64,000 bases of DNA from Candidatus Bruticola papionis (GCA_002407045.1 DHKB01000048.1:22585-86584), one strand, 5' to 3'; shown: positions 2,398 through 48,018, counted from the stretch's first letter. Notes: a model not told the origin generated them from the sequence alone. Numbers and translations are program-made.

Positions 2398-2583
2398 TGG
2401 GTATAAACTCTGCTTTTATAAAAAGCCTTTTTACATAAAAGAAGGCGAATCTATGTCGAGACGTTAACTTCCTGCTCACACCAATTAACTTATTTTGTCC
2501 TATATTCGATAATGTAGAATTGTTTGTTGATCATCAAGATGATTAAGAATAAAAATCAGCTTGATGATCTCGACGGAGGTTCC

Positions 2584-4092: not shown

Positions 4093-4268
4093 CTTCTAGT
4101 TTTGTCTGTAAATAGTGCCTTTGTTTAGCTATTAAGTAAAAATAAAGGTAAACAAGGGTCGATCTTTCTTAGCTTCAATTATAAAAAGCCAGGAGGCTCG
4201 GCCCGTCTTCAATAGAATTTGTATATTAATACATTTCCGTTCAAAAAAAAAATGTTCTAGGAGGCAAG

Positions 4269-14382: not shown

Positions 14383-15432
14383 ATGCGTTGGTCATTTAAA
14401 TTAGCAAAACTGTGGGGTATTGATATATATGTTCACTACACCTTTATGCTGTTGCTAATCTGGATATTTTTCTCTCGCGGAGCCAAAAACGATTGGACTA
14501 CCAGCTTAATCAGCGTATTTTTCACCCTAATCGTTTTTGGAGTCGTAACTTTGCACGAGTATGGCCATGCTTTGACCGCCAGACATTTCGGAATTGCCAC
14601 CAGAGACATAACTTTATGGCCTTTTGGCGGCGTAGCAACTTTGCAAGGTTTACCTCAGACACCACGCCAGGAAGTTTTAGTGGCTTTAGCTGGCCCAGCC
14701 GTCAATTTTGTCCTGGCTCTGGCAACTTATCTTTTCACAGATTTTATCTTTATCCCTCATTTAGCGGCCAATTTTATTCCCATAGTACAAGTATATGGAG
14801 TAGAAGTTCTCTACTGGTTCATGTGGAGTAATATTGTTTTAATGGCCTTTAATTTAATTCCAGCTTTCCCCATGGACGGCGGTCGTGTATTGCGCGGTTT
14901 CTTGTCCAAAAAGTACGATTTTCTTACGGCCACTGATAAAGCGGTTAGCATTGGTAGAGCTTGTGCCATAATTATGGCTATATACGGTGCCGGTTACAAC
15001 CATATGCTGATTATCATTGCCATTTTTATCTGGTGGAGTGGTACTCAAGAGCTCAATCAAGCGATCATGCTTGAACGTATGCGTCGAGTAAAAGAAGGTA
15101 CAGCCAGCCTCGCCGATCTTTTTGGTTTAGGTTTAGGCACTATGGGAAATGTAATGAGTCATATCCTCGGCATGAGCGGTTTCAATCCCAATAGTCAGAT
15201 AAACTTTGGCGAAGCACAAACTTCTCCCTATAATACAGAGCGCAGAGCAAACGACGCACCTGAATACATTATTTCCGAAGGATCTGTGCGTAATAGTCAG
15301 CGTCCAAATTTCCCTGGCGAAGGTAAAATTATTGACGCCGAGTTTATTTCCGATGGCGATGACGATTCTTCGTCTGAGTCAAAAACATCCTCTACAAATA
15401 ACGATGGCCTCAGAATTGTTGATATAAAGTAG
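14383..15432 (+). CDS. Site-2 protease family (M50) zinc metalloprotease
   Basis: HEYGH zinc motif within a TM helix and the second motif LIPAFPMDGGRVL. Acidic, Ser-rich C-terminal tail. Confidence 0.8.
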   Translation: MRWSFKLAKLWGIDIYVHYTFMLLLIWIFFSRGAKNDWTTSLISVFFTLIVFGVVTLHEYGHALTARHFGIATRDITLWPFGGVATLQGLPQTPRQEVLVALAGPAVNFVLALATYLFTDFIFIPHLAANFIPIVQVYGVEVLYWFMWSNIVLMAFNLIPAFPMDGGRVLRGFLSKKYDFLTATDKAVSIGRACAIIMAIYGAGYNHMLIIIAIFIWWSGTQELNQAIMLERMRRVKEGTASLADLFGLGLGTMGNVMSHILGMSGFNPNSQINFGEAQTSPYNTERRANDAPEYIISEGSVRNSQRPNFPGEGKIIDAEFISDGDDDSSSESKTSSTNNDGLRIVDIK

Positions 15433-21609: not shown

Positions 21610-22048
21610 CCTAACCCTAGAACTTTTGACGTTTTAGACTTCACCTTAGCCGAAACGACCGGGTAAACGCCCACTTCGTCGCCGATTGCCGCCGCCTCCG
21701 AACCGCAATTCCAAGACAACGAACAGATCGCCAAACCAACGAAAAAAGTCCTACCATTCATTATCTCAAATGTACAAAGTTTTTTATGTATAAACAAGCA
21801 TATTTTTTATTTATTTTTACATTTTTTCCAAAAGCTCACTCCTTTGTAACAATCTGATTTTTTACTTTGGATGGTAGGTGCCCAGCTTCAAAAATTTCCG
21901 CAAAAAACAGCTAATAAGTATTTTTTTATAAAAAATGACAAAGGACAGGGGCTGACAGTATCAAAAAGGCACGATCGGTTATATAATTTTCTCAGAAACG
22001 GAATCTGGTCAAACAGTGCAAATAAGATCTTATAAAGGAGGGCAGTAT

Positions 22049-24448: not shown

Positions 24449-24456
24449 ATCTAAAT

Positions 24457-24508
24457 GTCTAAGCAATAAGGCCCGGGCGCTTAAGCGCCCGGGCCTTATT
24501 GCTTAGAC
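24457..24508. terminator. Perfect 52-bp palindrome (24-bp stem, 4-nt loop)
   Basis: gtctaagcaataaggcccgggcgc ttaa gcgcccgggccttattgcttagac sits immediately after the paralog-1 stop. It is probably a bidirectional intrinsic terminator, although no T-tract follows. Confidence 0.55.
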
Positions 24509-24608
24509 TAATTTGTACTGTCCCTAAAAAATCTTTATTTTTTTATTTACCCCGCTAAACGGCAAAAAAATGTTACAACCATAGAACGAAATATTAATAT
24601 TTGAGAAC

Positions 24609-24637
24609 TTGAATATTTAACCTATACAAAGTTTAAT
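24609..24637 (+). promoter_or_regulatory. Candidate sigma70-type promoter for paralog 2
   Basis: TTGAAT-17nt-TTTAAT lies in the AT-rich spacer ~115 nt upstream of ATG 24752. It has been read by eye only. Confidence 0.3.
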
Positions 24638-24751
24638 AAAGTGGGTAGGTTTTGCACTTAGTTTGCGGCAACTTTCATTTTTTAGCTCCATTTCGGCTGA
24701 ATTTATTTTGCTTAGGCAAGCATTCCGATCCTCATAGGGAGGTAAAAACTT

Positions 24752-27097: not shown

Positions 27098-27169
27098 AAC
27101 AATCCTAGTAACAACCTCTATAAGTTGTACCAATTCCTTATAGCTGATAGCAAAATTCGGAGAGAGAAT

Positions 27170-29608
27170 ATGTTAGAAAGAAACAAGAAAGGCATAGTTC
27201 TAGTGACGACCATGCTTACTGTCGTCCTAGTAATGATGCTTTTAAGTTCAGTAGTTTATTCTAACCTAGGCAGCTTTCGCCTAACAACGAATTTTTACGA
27301 TAAAGAAAATGCCCTTATGGCTGCCCAATCTGGCGCCCAATACGCTATAACTCGCCTACAAAGCGATATTCTCTGGAAAGCCAATCCTTCTACTCCATAC
27401 ACTTTTAAGACAAACGACTTCGAAGTCAAAGAAGAAGATGGCAACGTTTGGGGTATTTTATCCAGTGCTAATGGAAAAAAATCGGTCTTTTGCATAAAGT
27501 TTAATTGCGAAGATGGCCCTGGAGGCTTCGATAATATGAACGACAGTTCTAAAAAGATCGAATCTCCTTATATTTCCACTAACAATCTTTTCAGCAGCGT
27601 TCCTTGTATGGCTTATTCAGCCGATAAAAACGGATCTATCCAAGGCAAAACGGTCAACGAAAATGGCAAAGAAGTTTTTAAGCCCAATGCCGACGCCAAG
27701 CAAGTTACTATTCCTAAAGCCACTTGCAATTTAATAGTGGAAGGATTTAGTGGACCAGCTGTGCGTGAGGCCAGCTTATCTGAGCCTATCGACCCGAAAT
27801 CTTCCTGTGCACGACAAATTGTAGAAATTTACGTTTCTATAGATCCCAGTTCCTTAAATGTAGATTCAGCTATTAGCGCTTCAGGAAATATCGACGTTAA
27901 AACCGGCACCTTCAGATTAAGTAGTGGCGAAGGAAGCCAAGCTCCCAACATACGCTCTTTAGGCCATATTGCCTTAACAGGTCAAGTAAGCGCCGGAAAC
28001 GGTACTGTTTACTTTAACGACGGCTTTACAGTAAATGGAGCCACAGAAACAGATATAAAACACGAAAAAAGCACTTCCGGAGAGAATTTCGCTAAAATTA
28101 CTTGGGCTGACGTACCTAAAGCCACTAAAAGTGATACAAATTTACCCTCCGGAACTTACGTATGGGAAAAGAATCCCACAACCCAAGACATTGAGTTGCG
28201 CCATTATCCCACTATCATTTTTTATAATGGCAAACCGCTCCCCGACACCGGTTACCAAACTGTAAGTACAGGCAAATTTAAAGGCATGACCGTAGACAGT
28301 AAAAACTTAACGATCATGTTCGACCAAAATATGTATGTGCCAGGTGATTTGCTCATTCGTTCCAATATAAATGAATATGGCACCAGACCAATAGTTGGTT
28401 TCGTCAATAAAAACAAAGGCGACAACGGCACAACTATTTTAACAAGTAAAGGAAACATCACTATTTCCGGCGCAACTATGGGCAATGGAGCCATTACTTC
28501 CGAAGGCAATATCACCATGCAAGGCCCCAGCCTTTTGGAATCAGATCCTGGTGTAGGTGTTTCTATTTATTCTAAGGGAAACGTTACTATAGAACCAATC
28601 TATAATACTAGTGCCAGTATAGAAAATATAATACCCACTAACCATCCCGAGGGTAGCGGCCCTTACGATAATGTAGAAGTCGATCCCACTACCGGTGCAA
28701 CTAGTGAAAAAACCCCATCTTCTCCTTCTAATTCCGATGATGATGACGACGATGATGATGATGATGAAATTATTATGAACGTTGATCCAGAATATGACAG
28801 AGCTTATTCTATGGGTTATGCAAGTTACGCAGACAATTATAGCAGCCAATATGGCAATTCACAATGTGGAAAATGCCAAGAAAACGGAGGTCGTGCCTAT
28901 TGTAAAACTAAGGGCGTCTTTGACTTAACCAACAACGAAGGTTCTAGGATATTTAATGATTTGTATAAAGCTGGGTTTTACAAGCAAAATTTTAAGCAGT
29001 TTACAAATCTAAAAACTTTCAATCCCGGCTGTGATTGTCTTAATCACCAAAGTGACAGAACTGAGCATTGCTCTGGATGTAAATTCATTGATGCAGCCAA
29101 GCAAATTTATAAGCAAGGTCAGAAGGATGGTAAAAAGCATCGTAAGCATGACGACGACGATGATGACGACAACAATTCTAAGCCCTCTAAATCCGACGAT
29201 AGCAAAGGCATGGCTTCAATTGACGATCCTGGGCTTAGTGATAAACTGATAGATGGCTCAAAACAAACGGACAATTATGAAAACTATAAGCGCGAACAAT
29301 TAGACACTTTAATTGAGCGTTATGGCAATATCAAATACTCCGACCAAGAGATTGCTGGCGTTGTTTATGCTTGGAAGAATATCAATGTCAACATTGGCTC
29401 TGAGAGCCGTTTGAGTTTAACTGGTGCTATGGTAGCTTATGGACGCGAACCCAACAAAGATCAAAATGCTAGCAAAACTACCGATACTGGCAATATCAAT
29501 TACAATGCCAAAAGTGTCGATTTGACTTTTGATCCTAACTATCTAAATAAATTACTCAACGCTTCAGCTCAAAGAAAGTTGCAAATAAAAATGTTTGCCA
29601 ACTATTAA
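27170..29608 (+). CDS. Paralog 3 of 4: pseudopilin-like/signal-anchored large surface protein with poly-Asp tracts and Cys-rich insert
   Basis: ATG 27170 is preceded by GGAGAGAG. The longer ORF from 27125 lacks an SD. The N-terminal module KKGIVLVTTMLTVVLVMMLLSSVVYSN and C-terminal ...YAWKNINVNIGSESRLSLTGAMVAYG...KMFANY are conserved. A D10 tract and a D7 tract are present. Confidence 0.7.
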   Translation: MLERNKKGIVLVTTMLTVVLVMMLLSSVVYSNLGSFRLTTNFYDKENALMAAQSGAQYAITRLQSDILWKANPSTPYTFKTNDFEVKEEDGNVWGILSSANGKKSVFCIKFNCEDGPGGFDNMNDSSKKIESPYISTNNLFSSVPCMAYSADKNGSIQGKTVNENGKEVFKPNADAKQVTIPKATCNLIVEGFSGPAVREASLSEPIDPKSSCARQIVEIYVSIDPSSLNVDSAISASGNIDVKTGTFRLSSGEGSQAPNIRSLGHIALTGQVSAGNGTVYFNDGFTVNGATETDIKHEKSTSGENFAKITWADVPKATKSDTNLPSGTYVWEKNPTTQDIELRHYPTIIFYNGKPLPDTGYQTVSTGKFKGMTVDSKNLTIMFDQNMYVPGDLLIRSNINEYGTRPIVGFVNKNKGDNGTTILTSKGNITISGATMGNGAITSEGNITMQGPSLLESDPGVGVSIYSKGNVTIEPIYNTSASIENIIPTNHPEGSGPYDNVEVDPTTGATSEKTPSSPSNSDDDDDDDDDDEIIMNVDPEYDRAYSMGYASYADNYSSQYGNSQCGKCQENGGRAYCKTKGVFDLTNNEGSRIFNDLYKAGFYKQNFKQFTNLKTFNPGCDCLNHQSDRTEHCSGCKFIDAAKQIYKQGQKDGKKHRKHDDDDDDDNNSKPSKSDDSKGMASIDDPGLSDKLIDGSKQTDNYENYKREQLDTLIERYGNIKYSDQEIAGVVYAWKNINVNIGSESRLSLTGAMVAYGREPNKDQNASKTTDTGNINYNAKSVDLTFDPNYLNKLLNASAQRKLQIKMFANY
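28736..28768 (+). repeat. In-frame GAT/GAC trinucleotide repeat encoding D10-E
   Basis: gat gat gat gac gac gat gat gat gat gat gaa lies within paralog 3. Confidence 0.9.
29150..29170 (+). repeat. Second in-frame GAC/GAT repeat encoding D7
   Basis: gac gac gac gat gat gac gac lies within paralog 3. Confidence 0.85.
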
Positions 29609-29629
29609 AATACAACACAAGCTCGAACG

Positions 29630-29672
29630 AGGCCGCCGTTTTTCGCAAACGGCGGCCTTTTTTATTATTTTT
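29630..29672 (+). terminator. Rho-independent terminator after paralog 3
   Basis: ggccgccgtt tttcgcaa acggcggcc followed by tttttattatttttt. Confidence 0.8.
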
Positions 29673-29794
29673 TAATGATTTTGTGTAGGAACTTTTAGCT
29701 GCAACTAAAAAGGCGCTCTTTAGAATATTTTCTTATTTATTCGGAGTTTTCGCCATTTTATAGTTTTTTTAGTTTCCTCAGGAGAAAGTAGATC

Positions 29795-32167
29795 ATGGTC
29801 AGCAAACAAAGGAAAGGTATAGTGCTGATAACGACTATGCTCACAGTCGTTTTGGTTATTATGCTCTTAAGTTCGGTTGTATATTCCAATCTTGGCAGTT
29901 TAAGGCTTACTACCAATTTCTACGACAAAGAAACTGCCCTCATGGCTGCTCAGTCCGGCGCCCAATATGCTATCACCCGTCTACAAAACAATATTCTTTG
30001 GAAAGCTGATCCTACAACTGCTTACAAGCTGAAGACCAACAATTTTGAAGTAAAAGAAGAAGACGGCAATGTTTGGGGCATCTTAACCAGCACCAATGGC
30101 AAAAAATCTGTTTTCCGCATTAAATTTAATTGCGAAGACGGAGACGGTGGCTTGGACGGCATGAGAAATAGCGACCAAAAGATTGAGTCTCCTTATATTT
30201 CCACCAACAATTTGAGCAATAGTGTTCCTTGTTTAGCTTACCCAGCCGATAAAAATGGTGTAGTTAGGGGTAAAAACGTCAACAACGGGACAAAGACAGT
30301 ATTCAAGCCAGATACGGGTGTAAATGCTATTACAGTGCCCAAGGCTACTTGCAATTTAATAGTAGAAGGTTTCAGCGGCCCAGCTGTGCGCCAAGCCACT
30401 TTAGACAAACCTTTCAACTCAACTTCTGGGTACGCCAGTCAAGTAGTCGAACTTTATATATCTATAGATCCTAACTCTTTAAAATCAGACGCTGTAGTTA
30501 GTGCTGCAGGCAATATTACTGCCGATGTAAATCAATTTGCTTTGCGCACTTCCGAAGGCAGCGGCGCTCCCAATATGCGTTCTTTGGGCAATATCGACTT
30601 AAATATAAGTCAAGGTTTAGGTATAAGCAACGATACTACAGTTTATTATGGCGACTATTTCAATGTAAACGGCAGCCATAACGACCAAATAAAATCCCAG
30701 CAAAGCGATTCTGGTAAAAACTTCACAGCCATCACTTGGAATGACGTCCCCAAAGCTTCTGAAAATGATAATCCCATTACTCCAGGTACTTATGTTTGGG
30801 TTCGCAATGGCAGCCAGAACGAATTGCGCCACTATGCCAACAAAATCTACTACTACGGCACCACACTTCCAGATTCTGGCTATGAAGTCATGAATAAAGG
30901 TAATAACAAGTTTTCTGTTAACAACGAAAACTTGACTATCATGTTTGATAAAAATACTTATGTAGGCGGCGATATACTTATTCGTTCTGACATAAATGAG
31001 TATGGTACGCGCCCTATCGTAGGTTTTGCCAATGAAAAGAAAGGCGACAACAAAACCACCATTTTGACCAGTACTGGCAATGTTATGATCTCCGGCGCTA
31101 CTATTGGCAACGGTGCTATTACAGCTGCTGGCAATATAAATATACAAGGGCCCAGCATTTTGGAATCGGATCCCGGAGTAGGCGTCTCTATCTATGCCAA
31201 AGGCGACGTCAATTTGGAAACAATCTATAATACTACCGCCCATATGGAAGAAGTGCTGCCTACCGAAAATAAGGATACCCAAAAGCCTTACGATAACATA
31301 ACCGTAGATCCCACTACCGGCTTAGTTGAAGAAAAAGAGACTATAACCCAAGTCCCTACCGGAAGCGAACTTGAAGATGCCACTCTCAGTGCCGCCAACG
31401 AAACCAGCGTCAATCTCCGAAATTCTTGTGATTTGTGCCGGAATGCCCATAGGATTTATTGTTGCAGTGGTTCGGATAAAAGCCAATGGGGCTTTGTCAA
31501 TACGCCAGAAGCCATTGAATATTTACGCAATGTTTATGTCAAAGGTTTTAATGATACTGATCATAATAACGACGCCTTAAAGTATTACAAGCAGGTAGAC
31601 ACCAATGTTACTTTGTGCGGTTGTTTGTTCCATGACGGCGAAGAAATTAGGCCTCGTCCCCAAGAGCACAAAGACAGTTGTGAGTATTATAAAGACGTAA
31701 AGAAAATCTATAAACAAGCTCAAAAAGACGCTAAAAACAAGAAGAACTCCACCGATGAAGACAACGATATGACTACTGTTAAAGATCCAGACCTTAGCGA
31801 CAAATTAGTAGCTTCCGACCAACAAACTACCAACTACGAAAACTATAAAAGAGATCAACTTACTGAGCTGATAGGCCGCTATAATGGCATAAATTATTCA
31901 GACCAAGAAATTGCTGGTGTTATTTATGCTTGCGGTAATATCAATGTCAATATTGGCAAAGATAGTCGCTTAAATTTGACCGGTTCTATGGTAGCTTATG
32001 GTAAAGATCCGCAAAAAGATGGTGAAGCTACAAAATCCAATGGCAAAGGCAACATTTACTATAAAGCTAAAAGTGTAGAAATGACCTTCGATCCCAACTA
32101 CATCAATAAACTCTTAGAGGTAGCTGCTCAGCGCAAAGTTAAAATCAAGATGTTTGCCAACTACTAG
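29795..32167 (+). CDS. Paralog 4 of 4: pseudopilin-like/signal-anchored large surface protein with Cys-rich insert
   Basis: AGGAG SD is present. The N-terminal module RKGIVLITTMLTVVLVIMLLSSVVYSN is present. Paralog 4 is closest to paralog 3 (shared TTNFYDKE.ALMAAQSGAQYAITRLQ and the ...KMFANY C-terminus). Confidence 0.7.
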   Translation: MVSKQRKGIVLITTMLTVVLVIMLLSSVVYSNLGSLRLTTNFYDKETALMAAQSGAQYAITRLQNNILWKADPTTAYKLKTNNFEVKEEDGNVWGILTSTNGKKSVFRIKFNCEDGDGGLDGMRNSDQKIESPYISTNNLSNSVPCLAYPADKNGVVRGKNVNNGTKTVFKPDTGVNAITVPKATCNLIVEGFSGPAVRQATLDKPFNSTSGYASQVVELYISIDPNSLKSDAVVSAAGNITADVNQFALRTSEGSGAPNMRSLGNIDLNISQGLGISNDTTVYYGDYFNVNGSHNDQIKSQQSDSGKNFTAITWNDVPKASENDNPITPGTYVWVRNGSQNELRHYANKIYYYGTTLPDSGYEVMNKGNNKFSVNNENLTIMFDKNTYVGGDILIRSDINEYGTRPIVGFANEKKGDNKTTILTSTGNVMISGATIGNGAITAAGNINIQGPSILESDPGVGVSIYAKGDVNLETIYNTTAHMEEVLPTENKDTQKPYDNITVDPTTGLVEEKETITQVPTGSELEDATLSAANETSVNLRNSCDLCRNAHRIYCCSGSDKSQWGFVNTPEAIEYLRNVYVKGFNDTDHNNDALKYYKQVDTNVTLCGCLFHDGEEIRPRPQEHKDSCEYYKDVKKIYKQAQKDAKNKKNSTDEDNDMTTVKDPDLSDKLVASDQQTTNYENYKRDQLTELIGRYNGINYSDQEIAGVIYACGNINVNIGKDSRLNLTGSMVAYGKDPQKDGEATKSNGKGNIYYKAKSVEMTFDPNYINKLLEVAAQRKVKIKMFANY

Positions 32168-38616: not shown

Positions 38617-38670
38617 GTGCGCTCAAAATACCTTTCTCGCTCTAAGCAAGAAAGAAATACGAGAGCGCAC
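38617..38670 (-). terminator. Inverted repeat 15 nt downstream of the 38685 gene (putative terminator)
   Basis: gtgcgctc ... gagcgcac with inner complementary segments. It was checked against the CIRCE consensus and does not match. Confidence 0.35.
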
Positions 38671-38684
38671 TGCTCAGCTGAGAA

Positions 38685-39218
38685 TTACTTCTCTACGATA
38701 GGCTTGGCAACCACGGGGTTGACCGGATCCCAAACGATGAACTTAACATCTAAGTTCTGTACGCCCTTAGACTCAATGCGGACGCGCACTTTGTCATATT
38801 TACGCTCGCAGGGGAAGCTGTAATTGTCACTCAATCTGGCATTCTTGCGAGTAGCCAAAAGAGTACCATCGGGAGCATAGAAATATACATCTAAATTCTC
38901 GATGGAATTGTAGGTGCGGCCAGTGCCCAGCAAAGTTTCACCAGGAGCAGCGGGTTCCTTATGAACCAAAGCTTTAGGAGCTTCGATTCTCCAAGAAGTA
39001 CCGTTTACTACATCAAATTCGACGTAGCTGTTTTCATAGAAGAAGAAACTGGTATTGTAAGAGGGATACTCATAAATACTATAAGTGTAAGGACCGAACT
39101 CAGTTACTAAGTTCACGGTCTTCATGCTCTCATCCGCCATAGCCGGCGCAGCACCTACCGCTAGGCAGCCCAGCGACAAAGTGGCCAGCAGGAAGAGTGT
39201 GGCTGTGAATTTACGCAT
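38685..39218 (-). CDS. Small secreted hypothetical protein
   Basis: Signal peptide MRKFTATLFLLATLSLGCLAVGAAPAMA. The mature part is Tyr/Asn-rich and looks beta-rich. GGAG lies upstream of the ATG. Confidence 0.6.
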   Translation of the reverse strand: MRKFTATLFLLATLSLGCLAVGAAPAMADESMKTVNLVTEFGPYTYSIYEYPSYNTSFFFYENSYVEFDVVNGTSWRIEAPKALVHKEPAAPGETLLGTGRTYNSIENLDVYFYAPDGTLLATRKNARLSDNYSFPCERKYDKVRVRIESKGVQNLDVKFIVWDPVNPVVAKPIVEK

Positions 39219-39423
39219 TTAGCCTACTCCACTCGCTTTCTCGGCCCTCAAGGGCCATCTCAATGTTGACGGGACCATTTTTGACAGCCCCAAAAACGAA
39301 ACTGCCGAACACAATTCCTTACGTTTCGTGAAGGACAGCCCGCCCTAAGCAGTTCAGTTTTGTAACGAACTTTCGTGATCGGTTCTACAGTTCCAATTGT
39401 TCTCCTTCCGCTCAAAAAGCCTT

Positions 39424-40338
39424 TCAGCGTCCAAAAAAGTTATCCACAGCCAGACAAGAGACAATAGGTATATTTTTAGCTTTCAAAGCAGAAACTAAAT
39501 TTTGCAACTTTCCGCTATCACCTTTAAAAAAGAAACGCAATACTCCAGGATCGTCCTCTTTTTGCAATACATCAAATACATCTGAAGCTCCGCTTAAGCA
39601 TATAATAGCTTCGTCTATTCCTGTATCCCAAACTTGCAATTGCACTAAATTGTACTGGCCTATTTCTTGCACTACTTGAGGGTAGAGACCATGCACAAGA
39701 ACTTCATTTTCAGCAACAACAAATAATTGGCTATATAGCGTATCTAAATTAAGCAAACTTTCTGAGGATAAGAGAATAGCTTTACCGGTGTTGCGAATTT
39801 GGTTAAGTATATCGACAATTTTTTGCCAATTGCGGAAGTCGCTGCCTCTGAAGAGATCCTCTATTACAAGCAAGCGTGGACTATGTACCAAAGCTCCGGC
39901 TATGCTTACACGTTTACGCAAACTCAAATCACTAATTTTAGCGATTTGCATGTCTCTATATTGCGCTATTTGAGTAATTTCTAAAGCCTCATAAATAGCG
40001 TAAGGCCGGTAATGCTTATCTACATTGTACAATTCAGCATTGATAGCTAATTGTTCCCAAACAGTCAGTTCTTCATAAAATTCTGGTTCATTAGGGACAG
40101 CCCCTAACAAGTATTTAGCGGCAGGAGAAGTGTTTATATGGGCCCCAATACTTATACTATTGCGGCGTGAATTTTGTATGCCAACTACAGTACGCAATAA
40201 ATTGGCCGAGCTACTCAAATTTTGGCTAATTACTACTCCAATATCGCCAGCTTCCAAAACAAATGAGAGAGGACTTTTTAAAGCGATATTTTTTCCCCAG
40301 CATACTAAATTGCTGACTTCCAGAATAGGAATGGCCAT
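39424..40338 (-). CDS. Degenerate ABC-type ATPase-like protein (pseudo-ATPase)
   Basis: The ABC NBD architecture is present: N-terminal beta-strand ILEVSNL, signature-like LSLRKRVSIAGAL, Walker B-like LLVIEDL, D-loop. Walker A is replaced by ISQNLSSSAN (no GxxGxGKS/T) and the H-loop His is replaced (LLSSESL). The ATG lies 3 nt after the anti-sigma stop. Confidence 0.55.
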   Translation of the reverse strand: MAIPILEVSNLVCWGKNIALKSPLSFVLEAGDIGVVISQNLSSSANLLRTVVGIQNSRRNSISIGAHINTSPAAKYLLGAVPNEPEFYEELTVWEQLAINAELYNVDKHYRPYAIYEALEITQIAQYRDMQIAKISDLSLRKRVSIAGALVHSPRLLVIEDLFRGSDFRNWQKIVDILNQIRNTGKAILLSSESLLNLDTLYSQLFVVAENEVLVHGLYPQVVQEIGQYNLVQLQVWDTGIDEAIICLSGASDVFDVLQKEDDPGVLRFFFKGDSGKLQNLVSALKAKNIPIVSCLAVDNFFGR

Positions 40339-40341
40339 ACG

Positions 40342-41904
40342 CTATTCAATAGTATCGCGATTTGTAACGCTATCAGCATCATCATAAGTATTGCCTCCCA
40401 CTACATTTTCATTTCTGGGAGCAATTTCTTCTGCAGCGACAGCATTGTCGGTAGCATATTCAGTTTTGGAAGCATGGCGGCGCATTGAAGAAACAGTAAC
40501 ATCCGAACCGGGACGAATAATAGCCGGTGAGGGGGCGACAGCTGAACGAGGCGAAGATTCTGGGTGATTGCTGCCTGCAACATAAGAAGCGGAAATAGGC
40601 GTCGGCCCAGCCCCAGGAGCGACTTTATTAGAGGCCTTGGAGACAGGAGAAGGTGCAGGTTGATAAGCAGCCGTGTCATAGGCACGCGTAGGTCGAGAGG
40701 CGACTTTGGCTTTTACTTTAGGCTGGGCGCTGTAAACGGGACGGACGCCAGCACGATGCGCAGGTACAGCAACACGCGGCTGAGAAAAAATTTTGGCACT
40801 ATGATGAGTAGGAGCTGCTGCAGATTGAGGAGCGATAGCTACAGGGGCAGCAGAAGTAGATTCAGTCGAGCTATTGTCTGCCACTGCAGTATAGCGTTCA
40901 GCATTAGGTTCATCTTCGGTAGCATTTGAGCTATAGTCGGAATTGGCACTCGTCTCTTCAGAGGTAGAGTCGTAGTTATCCTCTGAAGCAGAAGGCTCTT
41001 CCTCAACATAATTATCTTGAGCGGAGCCGTCTTCCATAGCTAAAGTACTTTCGGGTAAGTTGTACCCTTCACGATATTTATTTACCGCAGCTTGGGCTTT
41101 TTCCAAATCGATATTTTTTACTTCCAGCCGCCCTCTAGCACTACGATAAGCGATATTTTGAGAACTTAATACAGTACAAGCCTCTACAGGGCTAAAATCG
41201 CCCAAAGGCAGAACGACCCACTCCTCTTTCACTTTTGCTTCAGAAGCCGCGACCGAATTTGAAGGCGAAGGGCTAACTTTAGCTTGCTGCTCATCATCTC
41301 CACTCCCACAAGTAATAAAAGATAGGCAAATGAACATCAGCAAAATAATGGCCGCCACCACACCGACCAAATGCAAATTTACTTTTTGCATTATAGCTCG
41401 CAGCCGTTCGATATTGGGGATACGCTCTTCCAAAGCATTTTCTACAATAACAGAAGTGCGACTGGGAGAAGCAAACAAGTTGCGCAACACCGGAGGCATG
41501 GTCCAACGACTGCTATCTGCGGCAGAGAGCCCCTCAAAGTCGTGTTCTACTTGCTTAATAAGCTGAATTTCTTTGCTACAATCGCTGCACATAAATATAT
41601 GCAAACGGATATTGCGTTGTTCCTCTTTGCTCTGCCGCTTGTCATTGAATGAGTAACGGAACAATTGCTCGTGAGTAGGATGAGCATCGTAAACAGGCTT
41701 AAATCCACTCTTGGCCAATTCGCTCAGAGGACGCATCAAATCGTGCAAGCGCCGAACTTCTTCACGACAGAATTGGCATTCGGTCAAATGGGCCTCTACT
41801 TCGGCGCGATTCGCCTTAGCCAAGGAGCGCTCCGCGTAGGGTACCAACATAGCCTTTATATATTCATTTTGGCAAACTTCTGCGCTATTTTTCTTAGGTC
41901 TCAC
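40342..41904 (-). CDS. Zinc-finger (zf-HC2-type) anti-sigma factor with TM helix and long Ser/Ala/Pro-rich periplasmic tail
   Basis: The N-terminus contains two HxxxCxxC motifs (HLTECQFCREEV and HIFMCSDCSKEI). A single TM segment (VVAAIILLMFICLSFITC) and a ~300-aa low-complexity C-terminus follow. GTG start. Confidence 0.6.
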   Translation of the reverse strand: MRPKKNSAEVCQNEYIKAMLVPYAERSLAKANRAEVEAHLTECQFCREEVRRLHDLMRPLSELAKSGFKPVYDAHPTHEQLFRYSFNDKRQSKEEQRNIRLHIFMCSDCSKEIQLIKQVEHDFEGLSAADSSRWTMPPVLRNLFASPSRTSVIVENALEERIPNIERLRAIMQKVNLHLVGVVAAIILLMFICLSFITCGSGDDEQQAKVSPSPSNSVAASEAKVKEEWVVLPLGDFSPVEACTVLSSQNIAYRSARGRLEVKNIDLEKAQAAVNKYREGYNLPESTLAMEDGSAQDNYVEEEPSASEDNYDSTSEETSANSDYSSNATEDEPNAERYTAVADNSSTESTSAAPVAIAPQSAAAPTHHSAKIFSQPRVAVPAHRAGVRPVYSAQPKVKAKVASRPTRAYDTAAYQPAPSPVSKASNKVAPGAGPTPISASYVAGSNHPESSPRSAVAPSPAIIRPGSDVTVSSMRRHASKTEYATDNAVAAEEIAPRNENVVGGNTYDDADSVTNRDTIE

Positions 41905-41984
41905 AATATTTTTACCATCCAGCTATTGTCGAATCTGTCAAAAAAGTACGTTCTTTTTACAGCAAATAAAGAAACAAAGAGCCT

Positions 41985-43181
41985 CTAATTTGAGCGTTGC
42001 TCGCCACCTAAGCTCAACAAACCGCGCAGAAGGCGCAAACCGATCTCTCCAGCGGAAGTAACTTCCAACTTTTGGCACAGCTCTGCAAATGAGCAATTGG
42101 CGAAGTAGCGCATCACTACAGTCCTATATGCCTCTAAATCGGTAGCGGCCAATCTTTTTAAGCCGCTAGCTAAAGCCTGAGCTTTTCGCGACAACTGAGC
42201 AGGAGCAGCCGGAGCAGCAGCGACAGGTTCTTTTTCTGGAGTATCCTCAGAAGGGCTTAGAGCCGGAGCTAAATGCACATTGTTTCTGGGGACTCGCGAA
42301 ACGGCAGCTTTGACACCAGAATCAGTTCGTAAAAGTTGGGCTTGATTGGAAGCACTCCCCAAAGAGCCAACGCGTCGAGTTTCGGAGCTTCCAACACCAG
42401 CAAGTCCGGACGAGCTCTCACTTTGGCGCACATACACAGGCCCTCTAACCCCTCCAGTTTTAGAGGTGGAAAGGCGCTCACGATTGGCGACTTCTTCTTT
42501 GCCACTGAGACTTCTAGTAGCCGGGATGCCAGATATTCTCATTTTGGGTTTGGGAACATCTTCAAAAAAGAGGCTGTCCTTATTAGTCCCACCATAATCC
42601 TGGCTTTTATAATTGGCTGGCGCAGAGATTTTATGTCCAGGCTCATCATCTAAGAAGAGACTGTGTCCTTGACTGTTATCCTTAGTATTATCGTCATTAG
42701 CTTTTGGCGTTTCCAAAGAATTTTGGATACGTTTAACAAAAGGCCCTGCGCAATGGCTATAAAGATAAAGACGAATACCCTTGCTTAAATCTATATCAGC
42801 AGCCTTATTGACAAAGTCTGTAAAAAAGCTATTAAGAAATTCCTTACGACGGCCACCACTACTAATTAAAGCTGGTGCAATTCCCCCCCGCTCACTGGCT
42901 CTTTCTTGCAAGTCGCGTTTTTCTAAGGCCACCAAGAGACTTTCAACATAGGGATAAAAAGTGCGTACTAAAATCTCGGCTGCTTCTTTGTCTCCGTTCT
43001 GAAAGCGGCTGACTATTTCCGAAGTAGTCGCACTATCCTCACGCTTCAGCAACTCGATCAATTTAGTTTTAGATTCTTCGTCGAGCGTTCGGTGCTCATC
43101 GTCTGATAAGGCAAAGTTATTTTCTGCCGAAGCGGTGCCGTTTATTTTAGGCAACCGTTCCAAATAATCGATATCGCTCAT
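41985..43181 (-). CDS. Divergent sigma-70/ECF-like sigma factor with ~200-aa disordered linker
   Basis: The C-terminal region-4-like HTH (LEAYRTVVMRYFANCSFAELCQKLEVTSAGEIGLRLLRGL) is present. The N-terminal region-2-like segment is GDKEAAEILVRTFYPYVESLL. The start is placed at ATG 43181, preceded by AGGAA. An upstream in-frame GTG at 43223 is an alternative. Confidence 0.5.
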   Translation of the reverse strand: MSDIDYLERLPKINGTASAENNFALSDDEHRTLDEESKTKLIELLKREDSATTSEIVSRFQNGDKEAAEILVRTFYPYVESLLVALEKRDLQERASERGGIAPALISSGGRRKEFLNSFFTDFVNKAADIDLSKGIRLYLYSHCAGPFVKRIQNSLETPKANDDNTKDNSQGHSLFLDDEPGHKISAPANYKSQDYGGTNKDSLFFEDVPKPKMRISGIPATRSLSGKEEVANRERLSTSKTGGVRGPVYVRQSESSSGLAGVGSSETRRVGSLGSASNQAQLLRTDSGVKAAVSRVPRNNVHLAPALSPSEDTPEKEPVAAAPAAPAQLSRKAQALASGLKRLAATDLEAYRTVVMRYFANCSFAELCQKLEVTSAGEIGLRLLRGLLSLGGEQRSN

Positions 43182-43398
43182 AGTATCATTCCTGAAGAAA
43201 ACGTTCCTGTTTAACTTCGACACTCACAAGCTGTGTTCCTTATTTTTGCTTTAACCGCTTTAGATAAAAAATTTGAAACGGCACAATAAATATTGTACAA
43301 TTCTGCCCGGTACTTGTCGTTTTTTAGCGATAAGAAAGCATGGCCTTTTTATCCACTTCCAACGGCTAGTGCGTCTTTGCAAAGGAACCGAATAAGCT

Positions 43399-45210
43399 TT
43401 GAACCACAATTCCAAGTTGTTAGGCGGCCTTTTAGGCCTTGTTGTCTGCTTTAATGTCTGTTCAGCATCTTCAGCCAAGTCTCCCGATACCACTCGCGAT
43501 CATTTAAAGGCTTGGTTAGCCCAAAATTTTGAACTACCGGGCGATCTTGATATAAGTGAAGACGAGCCTTCTTCAGCCGACGAGTCTCCAATTTCGCGTC
43601 CTCAATCAGCTCCAAGCGAGACCACATCAACTAGTTCCTTACCTACTGTTTCTCCCCAAAATTCAACTCCAGAAGCTTCTTCCCCCAATCAAGCGGTGAC
43701 ACTTCCAGCCCCTGAGGGTGGTCGTCCAGTAGTAACTGAAGCTCCTTCGGCCACTTGGCAATCTATTCCAGCTGCCAAAATTGACTCTCCAGAACCCCCA
43801 AAAGAAGTTTCTCCAGATCCCAAAATATTTTCCGAAGACGAAGACTTAGAAATAGTACGCCCAGAGTTGGCTCTAGTTTCTTTTGATAGGCGCGGTTTAT
43901 TGAAGCCAACAAATCCTCCACTTCCTTTAGAGCAAGACCAACAGATAGTTTTTAATCCAGAAGTACTTTTTAATGCCGAAGCTACAGAAAATTTAAGTGA
44001 TAGCGAAAAAGCTGCTTTTATAAAAAATTTAGCTCTCTTTATGCAATCAGATTACGCCTCCAAAGTAATCCTACCGCGTAAAGTCCTCGTCGTCCGCCAG
44101 GAAGGCAAAAACTTGTTAGGCCACTTGTATGACTTGGAGCTTTTGGATGATCGTGAAGTGCGAGCGCCATTAGATAAAGGCAAAGGATGGCAAAATTTGT
44201 GCGATCAGGCTCTCCAAGAGCGAGGCGGACTCCATGGAGTCGTGGTCAATATGGAAAGCAAGCAATATCACCAGCCGGGAGCTAAACATCTTTCTTTAAA
44301 CAGCCGTCTCTATGCTTTTAAAGATGAAAAATTAGCTAAGCGAAAAGGCTATGAGCCCTGTGCAGTTTGTTTTCCTAAAAATGATCCTTACTTAAGCATG
44401 AGTAGACAAGATAGAGAGCTTTCTAAAGAAGGCGCTTCCCAAGTCCAAAGTCGTTATAGTTTAAGTCAAGATTCAGAAGCCATAAGTAGAGTGCAAAAGG
44501 TTGGTCGACAGCTCTTAGAAGGAAATGGTTTTTCTCCAGACTTATGCGAATTTGTCGTACTAAACTCTCCGGAGGCCCAAGCTCTTTCTGTGCCTGGAGG
44601 GCCAGTTTTTGTTACCTCCGGCCTTTTGAAAATATTGGAAAGTGATGATGAGCTGGCTGCCGTTTTAGCTCACGAATTTGCTCACATATTGCATAAACAC
44701 GGCAGTGCCAGCAGAATGCGCAATAATATATCTAACATTTTAGATACAGTTATGCGCTATACAACCCGCAGCTATTGGGGATATTTTGGCTCCCAAAAAG
44801 CCTCCGACTTAATTAATAAAGGTTTTTCACGCGAACAAGAATATGAAGCCGATCGCAGCGCAGTACAACTTTCTTTTGCCGCAGGCTACAATCCGCAAGA
44901 ATTTTGCGCAACTTTAGAAAAGTTGGAATTATACCAACAAGAATCAGGTCAAGCCAAACTTCATATTCCCTGGTTTAGCACCCACCCCACTTCCGGCCAA
45001 AGGATCCAGGAAATAAAAAAAGTTTGTCAAGCTATAGAGCCCTTGCAAAAAGAAGCTGAATTCGCTCAAGAGCAAGGCGATAAAGATTACGCTTTAGCTT
45101 TACGCCATAGTTCTCTTCAGTATCTTAAAGACAAGCAAGCTATCGACGAACTTTGCCGCAGTTACAACAAACTAAACTGGGATATTTTACATGCCGACAA
45201 AGGATTTTAA
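43399..45210 (+). CDS. Exported M48-family zinc metallopeptidase with Pro/Ser-rich N-terminal linker
   Basis: Signal peptide (LLGGLLGLVVCFNVCSASSA), HExxH (LAHEFAHILHKH) and the downstream EYEADR glutamate motif typical of M48. TTG start. Confidence 0.7.
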   Translation: MNHNSKLLGGLLGLVVCFNVCSASSAKSPDTTRDHLKAWLAQNFELPGDLDISEDEPSSADESPISRPQSAPSETTSTSSLPTVSPQNSTPEASSPNQAVTLPAPEGGRPVVTEAPSATWQSIPAAKIDSPEPPKEVSPDPKIFSEDEDLEIVRPELALVSFDRRGLLKPTNPPLPLEQDQQIVFNPEVLFNAEATENLSDSEKAAFIKNLALFMQSDYASKVILPRKVLVVRQEGKNLLGHLYDLELLDDREVRAPLDKGKGWQNLCDQALQERGGLHGVVVNMESKQYHQPGAKHLSLNSRLYAFKDEKLAKRKGYEPCAVCFPKNDPYLSMSRQDRELSKEGASQVQSRYSLSQDSEAISRVQKVGRQLLEGNGFSPDLCEFVVLNSPEAQALSVPGGPVFVTSGLLKILESDDELAAVLAHEFAHILHKHGSASRMRNNISNILDTVMRYTTRSYWGYFGSQKASDLINKGFSREQEYEADRSAVQLSFAAGYNPQEFCATLEKLELYQQESGQAKLHIPWFSTHPTSGQRIQEIKKVCQAIEPLQKEAEFAQEQGDKDYALALRHSSLQYLKDKQAIDELCRSYNKLNWDILHADKGF

Positions 45211-45265: not shown

Positions 45266-46018
45266 TTGCAAATGCTCAATACTGAAGGCGTATTTTTAGA
45301 ATATAAAGCCGCCACTGGAGAAGTGCTTTCTTATCAAACGATAATGCACTCCAAGCAAAAGACAGAAGAAAACAACGAAGAGATCAGTAATACCGACGTT
45401 GTTATGGAAATGGCCACCAATCAGACGGTGACTAAGGTTTCTGGAAGCACCTTTGATGTAGACGTCAACGTTACCGACGGTTTCATTGAGCGCAACAACC
45501 AGAGGTTTCCCTTACCTGCTATCGGCCAGACTATAGGCATGACTGTGGAGAAAACTGGACGTATAACTCGCTCAACAGTCAACGCCAACATAAATCAGCC
45601 TGTCTTCCCCAGCGGTTTGCAACAAGTGGGCTCTTCCTGGACAGAAATCAAGCCTTTAGAAATTCCTCTGGGAGATAAGGGCCAATCGATTACCATCGAC
45701 TTAAAATTCGAGCATAAGCTTGTCGCTTTAGACACAGAGCAAAATTACGACGTAGCTATTATCGAAACGTCTGCTGGCCCCATGAGCGCCGACATAAAAG
45801 ATGGCATTAGCCAATCAGTTCAAGTAAAAGCCAGGACGGCTTTCGCTTATCGAGCTGGACAAATGGTCAGTTCTCATCTTGAATCAAAAACTATAGTTAA
45901 GGCTCCAGATTTGGTACTTACCAGCGTTCATACTATTGACACAATATTAAAATCTTCCAGTTCGCCGGTGATCGATACTCCCAGCATTGCTGACAGTGCT
46001 TTCATTATTGGCGCCTAA
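45266..46018 (+). CDS. Hypothetical protein
   Basis: 250-aa ORF 55 nt downstream of the M48 gene. No recognisable motifs. Confidence 0.45.
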   Translation: MQMLNTEGVFLEYKAATGEVLSYQTIMHSKQKTEENNEEISNTDVVMEMATNQTVTKVSGSTFDVDVNVTDGFIERNNQRFPLPAIGQTIGMTVEKTGRITRSTVNANINQPVFPSGLQQVGSSWTEIKPLEIPLGDKGQSITIDLKFEHKLVALDTEQNYDVAIIETSAGPMSADIKDGISQSVQVKARTAFAYRAGQMVSSHLESKTIVKAPDLVLTSVHTIDTILKSSSSPVIDTPSIADSAFIIGA

Positions 46019-46151: not shown

Positions 46152-46664
46152 TTAGCGCAAGCAATGCTCTACAATAGGCCGAATATAATCAGCACGCTTT
46201 TCCTTGGGGAGCTGTTCTAAAGTTTCGAACATTTGATCTACTAAAAGCATTTGCTGTTTGCGACGCAATTCTATGAGTTGGTTAACGTAATTCTTAACTA
46301 CAGCTCTATTTGGATTTTCAGAAGTAAGTTCTTTAGCCATTCGTCCTCGAAGTTCTTTTATAGAAGCTCTGATTTGCAACATTTGAGGACGATACTTTTC
46401 TCTCACTTGCTTGGCTTCGGGAAATTTTTGATACTCTTTGTCCCTGTCTTTGCGACTTATAAACTTACCCTTGGGCAAATTGTCTACAATATTGGTATGA
46501 TTGTTTGACTGGTGCTTAATTAAGTCGCCTTCGTTGATATTAACAACAGTCTTTTGCACACTACCATTTTCTACACAATTATCCCCTTCTTCGGCTAAAG
46601 CCCCACCACATGTAAAAGACAAAACACCAATAACAGCAACAAACAGCACAACCTTTTTAAACAC
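46152..46664 (-). CDS. Periplasmic Spy/CpxP-like (LTxxQ-motif family) stress protein
   Basis: Signal peptide, then a helical protein with repeated LxxxQ/ELR motifs (QMLQIRASIKELRGRMAKELT...LIELRRKQQMLLVDQ). It is the last gene of the ECF sigma operon. Confidence 0.5.
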   Translation of the reverse strand: MFKKVVLFVAVIGVLSFTCGGALAEEGDNCVENGSVQKTVVNINEGDLIKHQSNNHTNIVDNLPKGKFISRKDRDKEYQKFPEAKQVREKYRPQMLQIRASIKELRGRMAKELTSENPNRAVVKNYVNQLIELRRKQQMLLVDQMFETLEQLPKEKRADYIRPIVEHCLR

Positions 46665-46691
46665 GAAAATTATCCAACCTCTCTATCTTTG

Positions 46692-47384
46692 TTAGCGCCC
46701 ACTATCGGCAGCTTCATCGAAAGCTATATCCAAAAGTTCTTGAGACATCACATAGTCGGGTTTGTAATCAGCATAAATGACACTATTACTTAAATCTTCG
46801 TTGGCATTGCTGTTAAATTCGTCAGCCATAATATAATCGGTATAATAAGGCTCATCGCCACTGAGCTCGGTTCCGGAATCTTTAGATTGGGCAAAGTGTT
46901 TGTGTACTACAGATTCGCGCCCTACGGAAGCACTGGTATTGGCAACAACATTTGCAGCAGTTTGCCCAGGAGCCCCATTAGAAGCAAAGGCACTCCAAAG
47001 TACCGCACCACCAACTACAGCTAAAGATGCAGCAGCTGTAAAAGTCTTCCAATAGTGCAAATACTTACTTTTAGCTTTCAGCTCAGTTTCTAAACTGATA
47101 ATCTTACCTTTATTAGCCTCTTGGCCCACCTTTTTCCAAAAGCGCACTTTAAAATCAGAAGAGGGCTCTAATTCTTGCGGAAAGGCCTTATCTAAATTAT
47201 TCCATACCTCACTTAAAGAATGCTGATATTGACTACATCTGGAGCACTCTTCTAAATGTCTTTTCAACTTTGAAGCATCTGTTTCACTAAGAAGCCCGTC
47301 TTCATATTCTAATAATTTATCTACACACTCTTGACATTCTGCACTGTCCGGAAAAGCAGCTTCTGAGCCTTGGTTACCTTTCAT
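46692..47384 (-). CDS. zf-HC2 anti-sigma factor (single TM)
   Basis: N-terminal HLEECSRCSQYQ motif and TM helix (FTAAASLAVVGGAVLWSAFA). The start is 16 nt downstream of the sigma gene, with a GGAG SD. Confidence 0.7.
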   Translation of the reverse strand: MKGNQGSEAAFPDSAECQECVDKLLEYEDGLLSETDASKLKRHLEECSRCSQYQHSLSEVWNNLDKAFPQELEPSSDFKVRFWKKVGQEANKGKIISLETELKAKSKYLHYWKTFTAAASLAVVGGAVLWSAFASNGAPGQTAANVVANTSASVGRESVVHKHFAQSKDSGTELSGDEPYYTDYIMADEFNSNANEDLSNSVIYADYKPDYVMSQELLDIAFDEAADSGR

Positions 47385-47400
47385 AAAAGAGCACTCCTTT

Positions 47401-48018
47401 CTAACTGAATATCTTGCCTAAATACTTTTGCAAAGTTTGACGCGCCCGGTGAATTCTCGATCTAACAGCAGCTACTGTAATGCCTAAAGTTTCGGCGATC
47501 TCTTCATAGGTGAGATCATAAAAGCGGTTCATTATCAACGGAGCTCTCATTTCTTCGTCAATTTTCAAAAGCGCTCGTCGTAATTCGCGGCTAACTTCAC
47601 CGTACTCTACAGACTCCAAGGGAGAGTCTCCAGGATCGGCAAAGTCGCGTTGTATAGGACGATCCCCGCCCTTGTCCATAGGTTCATCTAAGCTTATCTG
47701 GAGAGGAACATCTTTGGCTCGCTTCTTTCTCTCTTTAAAGCACTGATTCATGGTCACTTTATATATATAGGTAAAGAGACGAGCTCTGAGTTCAAACCGT
47801 GGCAAAGCCTTATATAATTGAAGGAAAACCTCCTGAGCAGTGTCTTCAGCTTCCCTAGCTGAACCACCCTTGAATTTGTAAATTAAATTCAACACAGGAC
47901 GGTAGTAAATAGTCATCAATTCATCAAACGCAGAGTCGTCGCCAGCCTGAAAACGAGCTAATAAAGCAGCGTCGACAGCTTCTTCCCCGAGTTTGTCTGG
48001 TGGGTTAAATCCAGTCAC
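47401..48018 (-). CDS. ECF (sigma-24 type) RNA polymerase sigma factor
   Basis: Region 2 (AQEVFLQLYKALPRFELRARLFTYIYKVTMNQ) and region 4 HTH (LTYEEIAETLGITVAAVRSRIHRARQTL). GTG start. Confidence 0.8.
   Translation of the reverse strand: MTGFNPPDKLGEEAVDAALLARFQAGDDSAFDELMTIYYRPVLNLIYKFKGGSAREAEDTAQEVFLQLYKALPRFELRARLFTYIYKVTMNQCFKERKKRAKDVPLQISLDEPMDKGGDRPIQRDFADPGDSPLESVEYGEVSRELRRALLKIDEEMRAPLIMNRFYDLTYEEIAETLGITVAAVRSRIHRARQTLQKYLGKIFS

Follow-up and report, generated by a model that had tools for sequence, protein, structure and literature searches.

Why would an ATP-binding cassette (ABC) nucleotide-binding domain that has lost its nucleotide-binding motifs be encoded directly behind an anti-sigma factor? 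The question is raised by three minus-strand genes in a 64,000-nucleotide stretch of Candidatus Bruticola papionis (GCA_002407045.1 DHKB01000048.1:22585-86584), which was analysed at its full length, is called the window below, and from whose first letter all coordinates are counted. In order, the genes encode a divergent sigma-like protein, a zf-HC2 anti-sigma factor and the pseudo-ATPase. Our preferred answer, put forward tentatively and at a little below even chances, is that they form a lineage-specific envelope-signalling operon of gut Xenobia, in which a divergent sigma factor of the extracytoplasmic function (ECF) type is paired with a membrane anti-sigma factor, and in which the pseudo-ATPase serves as an accessory. 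The three genes are:

41985..43181, minus strand: sigma-like gene, 398 aa, with an N-terminal domain at residues ~31-157 (42711-43091), a disordered linker at 158-330 (42192-42710) and a C-terminal domain at 331-392 (42006-42191)
40342..41904, minus strand: anti-sigma gene, 520 aa, zf-HC2, single-pass membrane protein
39424..40338, minus strand: pseudo-ABC nucleotide-binding domain gene, 304 aa, called from its fold and its degenerate motifs

Open reading frame (ORF) coordinates and junction sequences agree with the first-pass annotation, which had described three tightly coupled genes separated by gaps of 80 and 3 nucleotides (nt). The second junction reads GAA TAG cgt ATG, and the third gene has no ribosome-binding site of its own, an arrangement that fits translational coupling of the anti-sigma factor and the pseudo-ATPase. 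Loci for comparison were taken from contigs with exact homologues, from GTDB genomes (one per species) and from one metagenome scan. The order of the three genes is kept at every recovered locus, with the last two always 3-9 nt apart, and on a 4.7-kb contig from a divergent lineage the third gene starts 6 nt past the anti-sigma stop codon. The gap between the sigma-like and anti-sigma genes, 80 nt in the window, is 11-39 nt between the called genes of relatives. Comparison of the window with four relatives gives ratios of nonsynonymous to synonymous substitution rates (dN/dS) of 0.05-0.13 for all three genes, indicative of purifying selection, and we infer that the three are co-transcribed. 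The frame of the sigma-like gene stays open up to an upstream GTG (41985..43223), with an ATG alternative at 43181; the ATG is probably the likelier start, because homologues are mostly 398-399 aa long with an MSDIDYL start, an AGGAA ribosome-binding site lies ahead of it, and the GTG falls within a conserved promoter-like motif.

In the third protein, the positions of interest are:

40201-40227, minus strand: Walker A equivalent, residues 38-46, GPNGAGKST replaced by SQNLSSSAN and the lysine by Ser44
39760-39762, minus strand: H-loop equivalent, Glu193 in place of histidine
39439-39654, minus strand: C-terminal regulatory domain, residues 229-300, beta-alpha-beta-beta-alpha-beta in the AlphaFold2 model

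The AlphaFold2 model is confident (predicted local distance difference test score, pLDDT, 88) and consists of a nucleotide-binding domain followed by the regulatory domain. Its best Foldseek matches are TM_1403, NosF, MetN and ABCA7/4/3 (E ~1e-18 to 1e-15), in a list with many nucleotide-binding domains (E 1e-18 to 1e-14, template modelling (TM) score 0.6-0.8), and both the RecA-like part and the helical subdomain of the nucleotide-binding domain fold are present. Profile searches point the same way at lower strength: NCBIfam models of ABC-2-type ATPases (DrrA at 7.9e-19, NodI, GldA, LptB, CcmA) match far under their cut-offs, and PF00005 reaches 19.3 bits against a cut-off of 25. Alignment with active relatives confirms that the Walker A lysine and the H-loop histidine, whose absence had already been noticed in the window, are gone throughout the family (the histidine being replaced by Glu, Asp or Ala), and adds three further losses: the Q-loop glutamine is replaced by Asn, Ala, Asp, Gly, Thr or Val, the LSGGQ signature is unrecognisable, and the hhhhDE of Walker B reads IED in the window or VEN elsewhere in the family. 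In each of the 13 family members, even at 34% identity, all five motifs have degenerated. Tested in this way against sequencing error, the pseudo-ATPase call stands: the sharing of the same losses by every member rules out such an error, and together with a dN/dS of ~0.1 (0.05-0.11 for this gene) it also rules out a pseudogene. The degenerate motif is itself kept, SQNL being invariant or nearly so, and SQRLNFSS is already present on the divergent-lineage contig. We regard the pseudo-ATPase call, as judged from the sequence, as solid; the motifs predict a maintained protein that is unable to form either composite ATP site. The regulatory domain has the same topology as that of type V exporters, with two helices and a four-stranded sheet (PMC11466899), and the gene as a whole is best explained, if with somewhat less than even confidence, as a former type V exporter nucleotide-binding domain.

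The identity of the second protein as a zf-HC2 anti-sigma factor is likewise solid at the level of profile and motif. Its landmarks are:

41767-41874, minus strand: zinc motif 1, C11 and H39xxxC43xxC46, conserved across 11 family members
41578-41682, minus strand: zinc motif 2, H75/H78 and H102xxxC106xxC109, invariant in 11 family members
41305-41373, minus strand: transmembrane segment, residues ~178-200, the sole hydrophobic segment

The protein has the H-x3-C-x2-C motif with an upstream Cys or His that marks zinc-binding anti-sigma (ZAS) proteins, the Pfam zf-HC2 model reaches 30.9 bits (cut-off 22.2; E 2.8e-7), the NCBIfam anti-sigma models match under their cut-offs, and a weak profile match leads to the Mycobacterium tuberculosis RslA chain 3hug_B. 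The position of the gene directly downstream of the sigma-like gene, and the single transmembrane segment of its product, also fit what is expected of envelope-stress ZAS/zf-HC2 proteins. Hydropathy and composition bear out the remainder of what had been proposed for this protein, namely two HxxxCxxC motifs, one transmembrane helix and a long Ala/Ser/Pro-rich tail. The two motifs appear to belong to two tandem zinc-finger-like modules, and the cytoplasmic stretch ahead of the membrane is conserved as well, with W134, P137, L140, R167, L168, Q173, K174, N176 and L177 invariant; in all, ~90 conserved cytoplasmic residues lie beyond one anti-sigma domain, in the second zinc module and a juxtamembrane helix. 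The ectodomain of ~320 aa (16% Ala, 14% Ser, 9% Val and 8% Pro) begins with a short conserved part of ~55 residues after the membrane, continues with ~250 aa of variable, low-complexity Ala/Ser/Pro-rich sequence and ends in a conserved C-terminal tail. This extreme C-terminus, GGNTYDDADSVTNRDTIE (residues 503-520; 40345-40398, minus strand), is conserved in the family despite the ~250 variable residues before it, and might mark the protein for recognition by a partner or protease in the periplasm.

How far the first protein is a sigma factor is a more delicate matter. The family alignment contains two conserved blocks, at residues ~35-157 and 330-392, separated by a variable Ser/Ala/Gly/Pro-rich stretch, and AlphaFold predicts both blocks as helical domains (pLDDT 82-90 for the first and ~70 for the second) joined by a disordered linker. 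The first-pass annotation had described an inserted Ser/Gly/Pro-rich linker of ~200 aa; the linker is indeed there, is predicted to be disordered and is rich in Ser, Ala, Gly and Pro (13, 10, 9 and 8%), and its length, at residues 158-330, is ~170 aa. No folded domain such as sigma-3 lies between the blocks, and the linker is far from the short one of ECF factors. In the family it spans from ~55 aa, in a member of 269 aa, to ~330 aa, in a member of 550 aa (locus L007, 7903-9555), which argues that the length of the tether is free to vary.

The C-terminal block carries the clearer signal. Pfam Sigma70_ECF (PF07638) aligns to residues 334-376 with 20.4 bits, just short of the 21.1-bit cut-off, 8 of 11 family members match the model (best E 3.7e-6), and in NCBIfam SigI and one planctomycete ECF subfamily are matched at E ~1e-3. 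For the N-terminal block, seven sigma region-2 structures top the Foldseek list at target TM scores of 0.5-0.7, with E-values of 0.5-1.9 that are not significant. Aligned by hhalign with the canonical ECF sigma factor encoded 4 kb away, both domains fall in register (P 0.001-0.006), RFQNGDKEAAEILVRTFYPY pairing with RFQAGDDSAFDELMTIYYRP and the region-4 helix-turn-helix pairing too (P 0.003). Of the earlier claim of a region-4 helix-turn-helix and a region-2-like segment, the former is backed by profile matches that in the window protein fall just short of the cut-off, and the latter only by fold searches and weak profile alignments.

Several points weigh against reading this protein as an ECF-type factor, and they concern mostly its N-terminal domain. 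No Pfam or NCBIfam sigma-2 model (Sigma70_r2 or equivalent) recognises it, a full-length family profile finds no match among PDB sequences, and a profile of the domain, searched against 1.84 billion representative proteins, retrieves six family members, two repeat-protein artefacts and nothing else, so that no sequence bridge to ECF sigma-2 domains was found. With no outside relative detectable by HMMER, a non-significant fold match and low hhalign probabilities of 6-20%, its homology to sigma-2 is weak. A conserved insertion of ~20 aa lies inside the domain, and the region 2.2 pattern pairs with KEFLNSFF and not with the canonical acidic/Gln motif. As modelled, the protein is nevertheless sigma-like in architecture and fold, and binding of core RNA polymerase, promoter use and activity with the polymerase are predictions. 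It has very probably descended from an ECF sigma factor and, by the usual sequence criteria, is too divergent to be filed in a family; an ECF-like factor with such an N-terminal domain or so long a tether was not found in the literature.

Two elements upstream of the sigma-like gene bear on the same issue:

43216..43240, minus strand: AGGAAC-N13-GTCGAA, a candidate promoter of the ECF type with conserved half-sites, upstream of the sigma-like gene
43287..43303, no strand assigned: conserved AATTGTACAATATTT element (TTGTACAA palindrome, sigma-70-like -10 TACAAT), further upstream in the divergent intergenic region

In the first, the bipartite TAAGGAAC-N13-GTCGAA, the half-sites are kept and the sequence of the 13-nt spacer is free to change. 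The motif occurs in the window and in 11 of the 14 upstream regions examined, two of these with the degenerate form GGGAAG-N13-GGCGAA (L003 and L018), and L007 and L016 retain GTCGAA alone. It resembles ECF promoters, with GGAAC at -35 and a CG-containing -10, and we take it as a candidate promoter. Its spacing is a further point against this reading, the distance from GGAAC to GTCGAA being 13 nt, and ~15 nt to CGAA, shorter than is typical of ECF promoters. The window holds a single exact match, and no further copies beyond chance that could be candidates for a regulon. A promoter shared with the adjacent canonical ECF sigma factor was ruled out, as a different conserved element, GAGTGAAACAAA, lies just upstream of the annotated start of that operon. 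The element at 43287-43303 is promoter-like on both strands, is kept in close relatives and is displaced in L014 and L015.

Given so divergent an N-terminal domain, the 398-aa protein might not be a working sigma factor at all. It could be a mimic or decoy that follows a PhyR-like logic, or an unrelated helical regulator, which binds the zf-HC2 protein and modulates another sigma factor, for example the canonical one 4 kb away, whose sigma/anti-sigma operon is adjacent at every locus. The missing sequence-level homology to sigma-2, KEFLNSFF in the place of region 2.2 and the insertion in the sigma-2-like domain all fit such a protein. However, the two sigma domains follow each other in the expected order and the gene immediately downstream encodes an anti-sigma factor of the cognate type, the C-terminal domain retains the ECF region-4 signature, and the ECF-like bipartite motif stands at the right distance upstream, where the canonical factor has a different sequence; in contrast to PhyR, the protein lacks a receiver or any other switch domain. 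We consider this alternative unlikely and continue with the sigma-like protein as a divergent ECF-type factor.

The surroundings of the operon bear on the two other alternatives. The genes and features involved are:

43399..45210, plus strand: secreted M48 metalloprotease, BepA/LoiP-like (PF01435, 1.1e-27)
45266..46018, plus strand: highly conserved 250-aa protein with no family match, whose position is kept in all long loci
46152..48018, minus strand: operon of the canonical ECF sigma factor, a zf-HC2 anti-sigma factor and a Spy/CpxP-like (Metal_resist) protein, assigned with Pfam; orthologues of the sigma factor carry Sigma70_r2 and r4_2
46692-47384, minus strand: the second anti-sigma factor, within the canonical ECF operon
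38685..39218, minus strand: secreted 177-aa protein with an N-terminal hydrophobic signal-like segment, the probable fourth gene of the studied operon
14383-15432, plus strand: homologue of M50 (site-2 protease family), 349 aa

A block of nine genes recurs, comprising the canonical ECF sigma factor, its zf-HC2 anti-sigma factor and the Spy/CpxP-like protein, the 250-aa protein and the M48 protease on the opposite strand, the trio, and the 177-aa protein. The canonical ECF operon stands beside the studied one at every locus, the M48 gene is divergent from the sigma-like gene at all loci long enough to show it, and the nine genes are together in L007 and L008 despite different outer flanks. The pseudo-ATPase family is found in ten GTDB species representatives (L010-L019), and its carriers are all gut or rumen Xenobia (Eremiobacterota/Vulcanimicrobiota), with human (Hadza) gut and goat rumen as stated sources and with 'Candidatus Bruticola sp.' as the name borne by those homologues that have one; the system is confined to this small uncultured lineage.

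Could the 304-aa protein still be a transporter subunit, one half, and the degenerate one, of a heterodimeric ABC-2 transporter with its active ATPase and permease encoded elsewhere, and either be merely co-expressed with the sigma/anti-sigma pair or have its transporter's state read by the anti-sigma factor? In ABC structures the helical subdomain contacts the permease, and this is where the most conserved family-specific motif, YRPYAIYEAL, sits. The protein also has a full nucleotide-binding domain fold with the regulatory domain of type V exporters, and ABC exporters often have degenerate sites (PMC11466899, citing Stockner 2020). Unlike in known transporters with one degenerate site, however, the protein has lost its signature face as well as its Walker A face, so that neither composite ATP site would be intact in a heterodimer. 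Moreover, despite the topology of the regulatory domain, no ABC-2 permease such as a type V exporter has stands beside the pseudo-ATPase gene at any locus, none was found among those ORFs of the 64-kb window that were scanned with Pfam, and no ABC permease or second nucleotide-binding domain is encoded within the nine-gene block at any locus. A transporter subunit is thus improbable, and the same two observations, the degeneracy of both faces of the ATP sandwich and the lack of a permease in the conserved block, disfavour the earlier suggestion that the pseudo-ATPase senses the state of a transporter.

That the genes are adjacent without any meaning for signalling, with the pseudo-ATPase a remnant, decaying or neofunctionalised, that is merely carried along where closely related genomes are collinear, gains something from the origin of all carriers in one gut/rumen lineage with most loci collinear over >15 kb and from the several-fold faster evolution of the three genes relative to HtpG or the canonical ECF sigma factor, yet is very improbable in view of a dN/dS of ~0.05-0.11 with full length held to 34% identity, of degenerate motifs that are themselves conserved (SQNL), of a distance of 3-9 nt from the anti-sigma stop codon that every lineage keeps and of a block that outlasts the change of its flanks. 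It remains a point against our interpretation that the whole neighbourhood is collinear in a narrow lineage, which makes synteny alone weak evidence of functional coupling; the near-overlap of the genes and the alike, fast rates of all three add to it.

Taken as a signalling operon, the locus suggests, from its sequence features, that a dead ATPase has been given a second use as an accessory in signalling, and the system could work as follows. The sigma-2-like and sigma-4-like domains of the first protein would be joined by a disordered tether, of ~55 to ~330 aa in the family, and would be sequestered at the inner membrane by the cytoplasmic zinc-binding domain present in the anti-sigma factor, whose long disordered ectodomain and conserved C-terminal tail would receive the signal. 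The pseudo-ATPase, made in step with the anti-sigma factor through translational coupling, would be a cytoplasmic accessory or scaffold, a co-anti-sigma factor, on the additional cytoplasmic parts of the anti-sigma factor, and would use for this the surfaces by which an active domain meets its permease and dimerises. Upon an extracytoplasmic signal, the anti-sigma factor would be removed by regulated intramembrane proteolysis, for which there are the M50 homologue in the window and the divergently encoded M48 protease; the former is a candidate for the intramembrane cleavage of both anti-sigma factors. The freed sigma factor would then transcribe its own operon from AGGAAC-N13-GTCGAA. The binding of sigma to anti-sigma factor, the contact of the pseudo-ATPase and the proteolytic release are all steps that we infer.

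A more specific version, which we hold to be doubtful, concerns the contact itself. In type V exporters, as in the ABCG and Wzm structures, an amphipathic helix that lies just ahead of the first transmembrane helix is in contact with the nucleotide-binding domain. The dead ABC domain could be the dedicated cytoplasmic partner of the single-pass anti-sigma factor, docking on its juxtamembrane helix or second zinc module as it would on a permease, and setting its dimeric state or its accessibility to proteases, thereby controlling the long-tethered sigma factor.

How does such a system compare with those already described? SigW-RsiW (PDB 5wuq) and SigL-RslA (3hug) are pairs of an ECF sigma factor and a zinc-binding anti-sigma factor; here, in contrast, the N-terminal domain of the sigma factor is unrecognised by Pfam and NCBIfam sigma-2 models, and a disordered linker of ~170 aa, a second invariant HxxxCxxC module and a translationally coupled pseudo-ATPase gene are added. 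With the SigI-RsgI systems known from Bacillus and Clostridium (PMC9732909, PMC7478892), the anti-sigma factor studied here shares its disordered ectodomain and nothing else; in RsgI this extracytoplasmic disordered region is required for the activation of sigma-I (PMC9732909). The present anti-sigma factor has no RsgI_N domain in Pfam searches and ~55 conserved juxtamembrane ectodomain residues, compared with ~140 in RsgI, and its host is a diderm, as LptF/G in the window imply, while the ABC component here is dead, has no permease and forms part of the operon.

ABC components have themselves been linked to ECF signalling before. In the sigY-yxlCDEFG operon the type V exporter YxlF2G2 is encoded beside the anti-sigma proteins YxlC and YxlD (PMC4105308, PMC7826278, PMC11466899), and the groups ECF31 (that of sigY-yxlCDEFG), ECF258 and ECF234 are ABC-associated (PMC7826278). 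As at our locus, an ATPase gene of the ABC-2/type V exporter kind lies there in the operon or conserved context of an ECF sigma and an anti-sigma factor; however, those ATPases work with a permease (YxlF2G2) and their motifs are, to the extent described, intact, whereas here there is no permease and every motif is lost. Similarly, EcsAB is needed for the cleavage of RsiW and RsgI by RasP (PMC9732909, PMC7478892), so that an ABC-2-type ATPase takes part in anti-sigma signalling with no known transported substrate; yet EcsA is paired with a permease, EcsB, and its gene does not stand together with that of an anti-sigma factor, and no EcsB-like gene lies near the pseudo-ATPase. The EcsA chain of a RasP-EcsA model (PDB 9a6w) is among the Foldseek matches of the pseudo-ATPase, at rank 16 and 21% identity. 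This similarity is no better than that to LptB or ABCA proteins, and a specific relationship to EcsA, going further than the shared ABC-2 class, was rejected. MalK, finally, is a working importer ATPase whose C-terminal regulatory domain sequesters the transcription factor MalT; that domain is of another fold class than the regulatory domain of the pseudo-ATPase, and MalT is not a sigma factor. The proposal that a dead ABC subunit with an anti-sigma factor had not been described thus needs narrowing: ABC links to ECF and anti-sigma factors are already known, and what our searches of the literature did not turn up is a conserved ABC domain that stands alone with no permease, is nucleotide-dead and is translationally coupled to an anti-sigma gene.

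If the pseudo-ATPase does work with the anti-sigma factor, it would represent a new class of accessory in the best-studied scheme of bacterial transmembrane signalling, and ABC domains would gain a new fate, with a nucleotide-binding domain maintained over millions of years for binding alone. How far an ECF-type factor can drift is seen in the sigma-like protein, and the absence of any outside relative of its N-terminal domain among 1.8 billion proteins implies that profile-based censuses of ECF factors may miss regulators in poorly sampled phyla. The hosts are uncultured Xenobia of human, primate and ruminant guts, whose gene regulation is almost wholly undescribed; the practical impact will be limited until a physical interaction or a regulon is demonstrated.

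The transcription unit is probably larger than the trio, taking in as its fourth gene that of the secreted 177-aa protein, which is found downstream at every locus with 60-96% identity, and lying within the conserved nine-gene block. Two further features belong to this end of the unit:

39219..39405, minus strand: highly conserved non-coding stretch between the ABC and 177-aa genes
38631..38655, minus strand: terminator-like hairpin with an 11-pair stem and a T-run past the 177-aa gene, a pattern match from a consensus scan

The same scan found no terminator-like site between the ABC and 177-aa genes. The non-coding stretch is more conserved than the genes that flank it, its 3' ~60 nt being near-invariant in 10 loci, including those in which the ABC protein is 34-55% identical. 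Rfam returned no match for it, covariation is weak and the fold z-score of -0.5 gives no thermodynamic signal, by which a known RNA family was ruled out; a 19-codon leader ORF was rejected, as its ATG is not conserved. The stretch may function as a leader RNA not described so far, or as a site to which a protein binds. Its position upstream of the fourth gene implies that part of the unit may be separately regulated, a further point against our interpretation.

The 177-aa protein outconserves its operon neighbours, with 95% identity where the ABC protein has 80% and 60% where the ABC protein has 34%, and the synonymous rate (dS) of its gene is unusually low, at 0.25 versus ~0.65. It has no match in Pfam, NCBIfam or PADLOC, and its PDB matches are weak and lectin-like only (E ~0.1). 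The 250-aa protein has likewise no match in these three collections, and the PADLOC scan for anti-phage defence gave none for any of five proteins. The N-terminus of the M48 protease carries a low-complexity region of ~130 aa. Elsewhere in the window, two tandem S8 subtilases with fervidolysin-like N-terminal prodomains are encoded at 2524-5720 (plus strand), and four consecutive ORFs of ~800 aa lie at 22016-32167 (plus strand), the first with a PilX_N (pseudopilin-like) N-terminus and the other three with no Pfam match.

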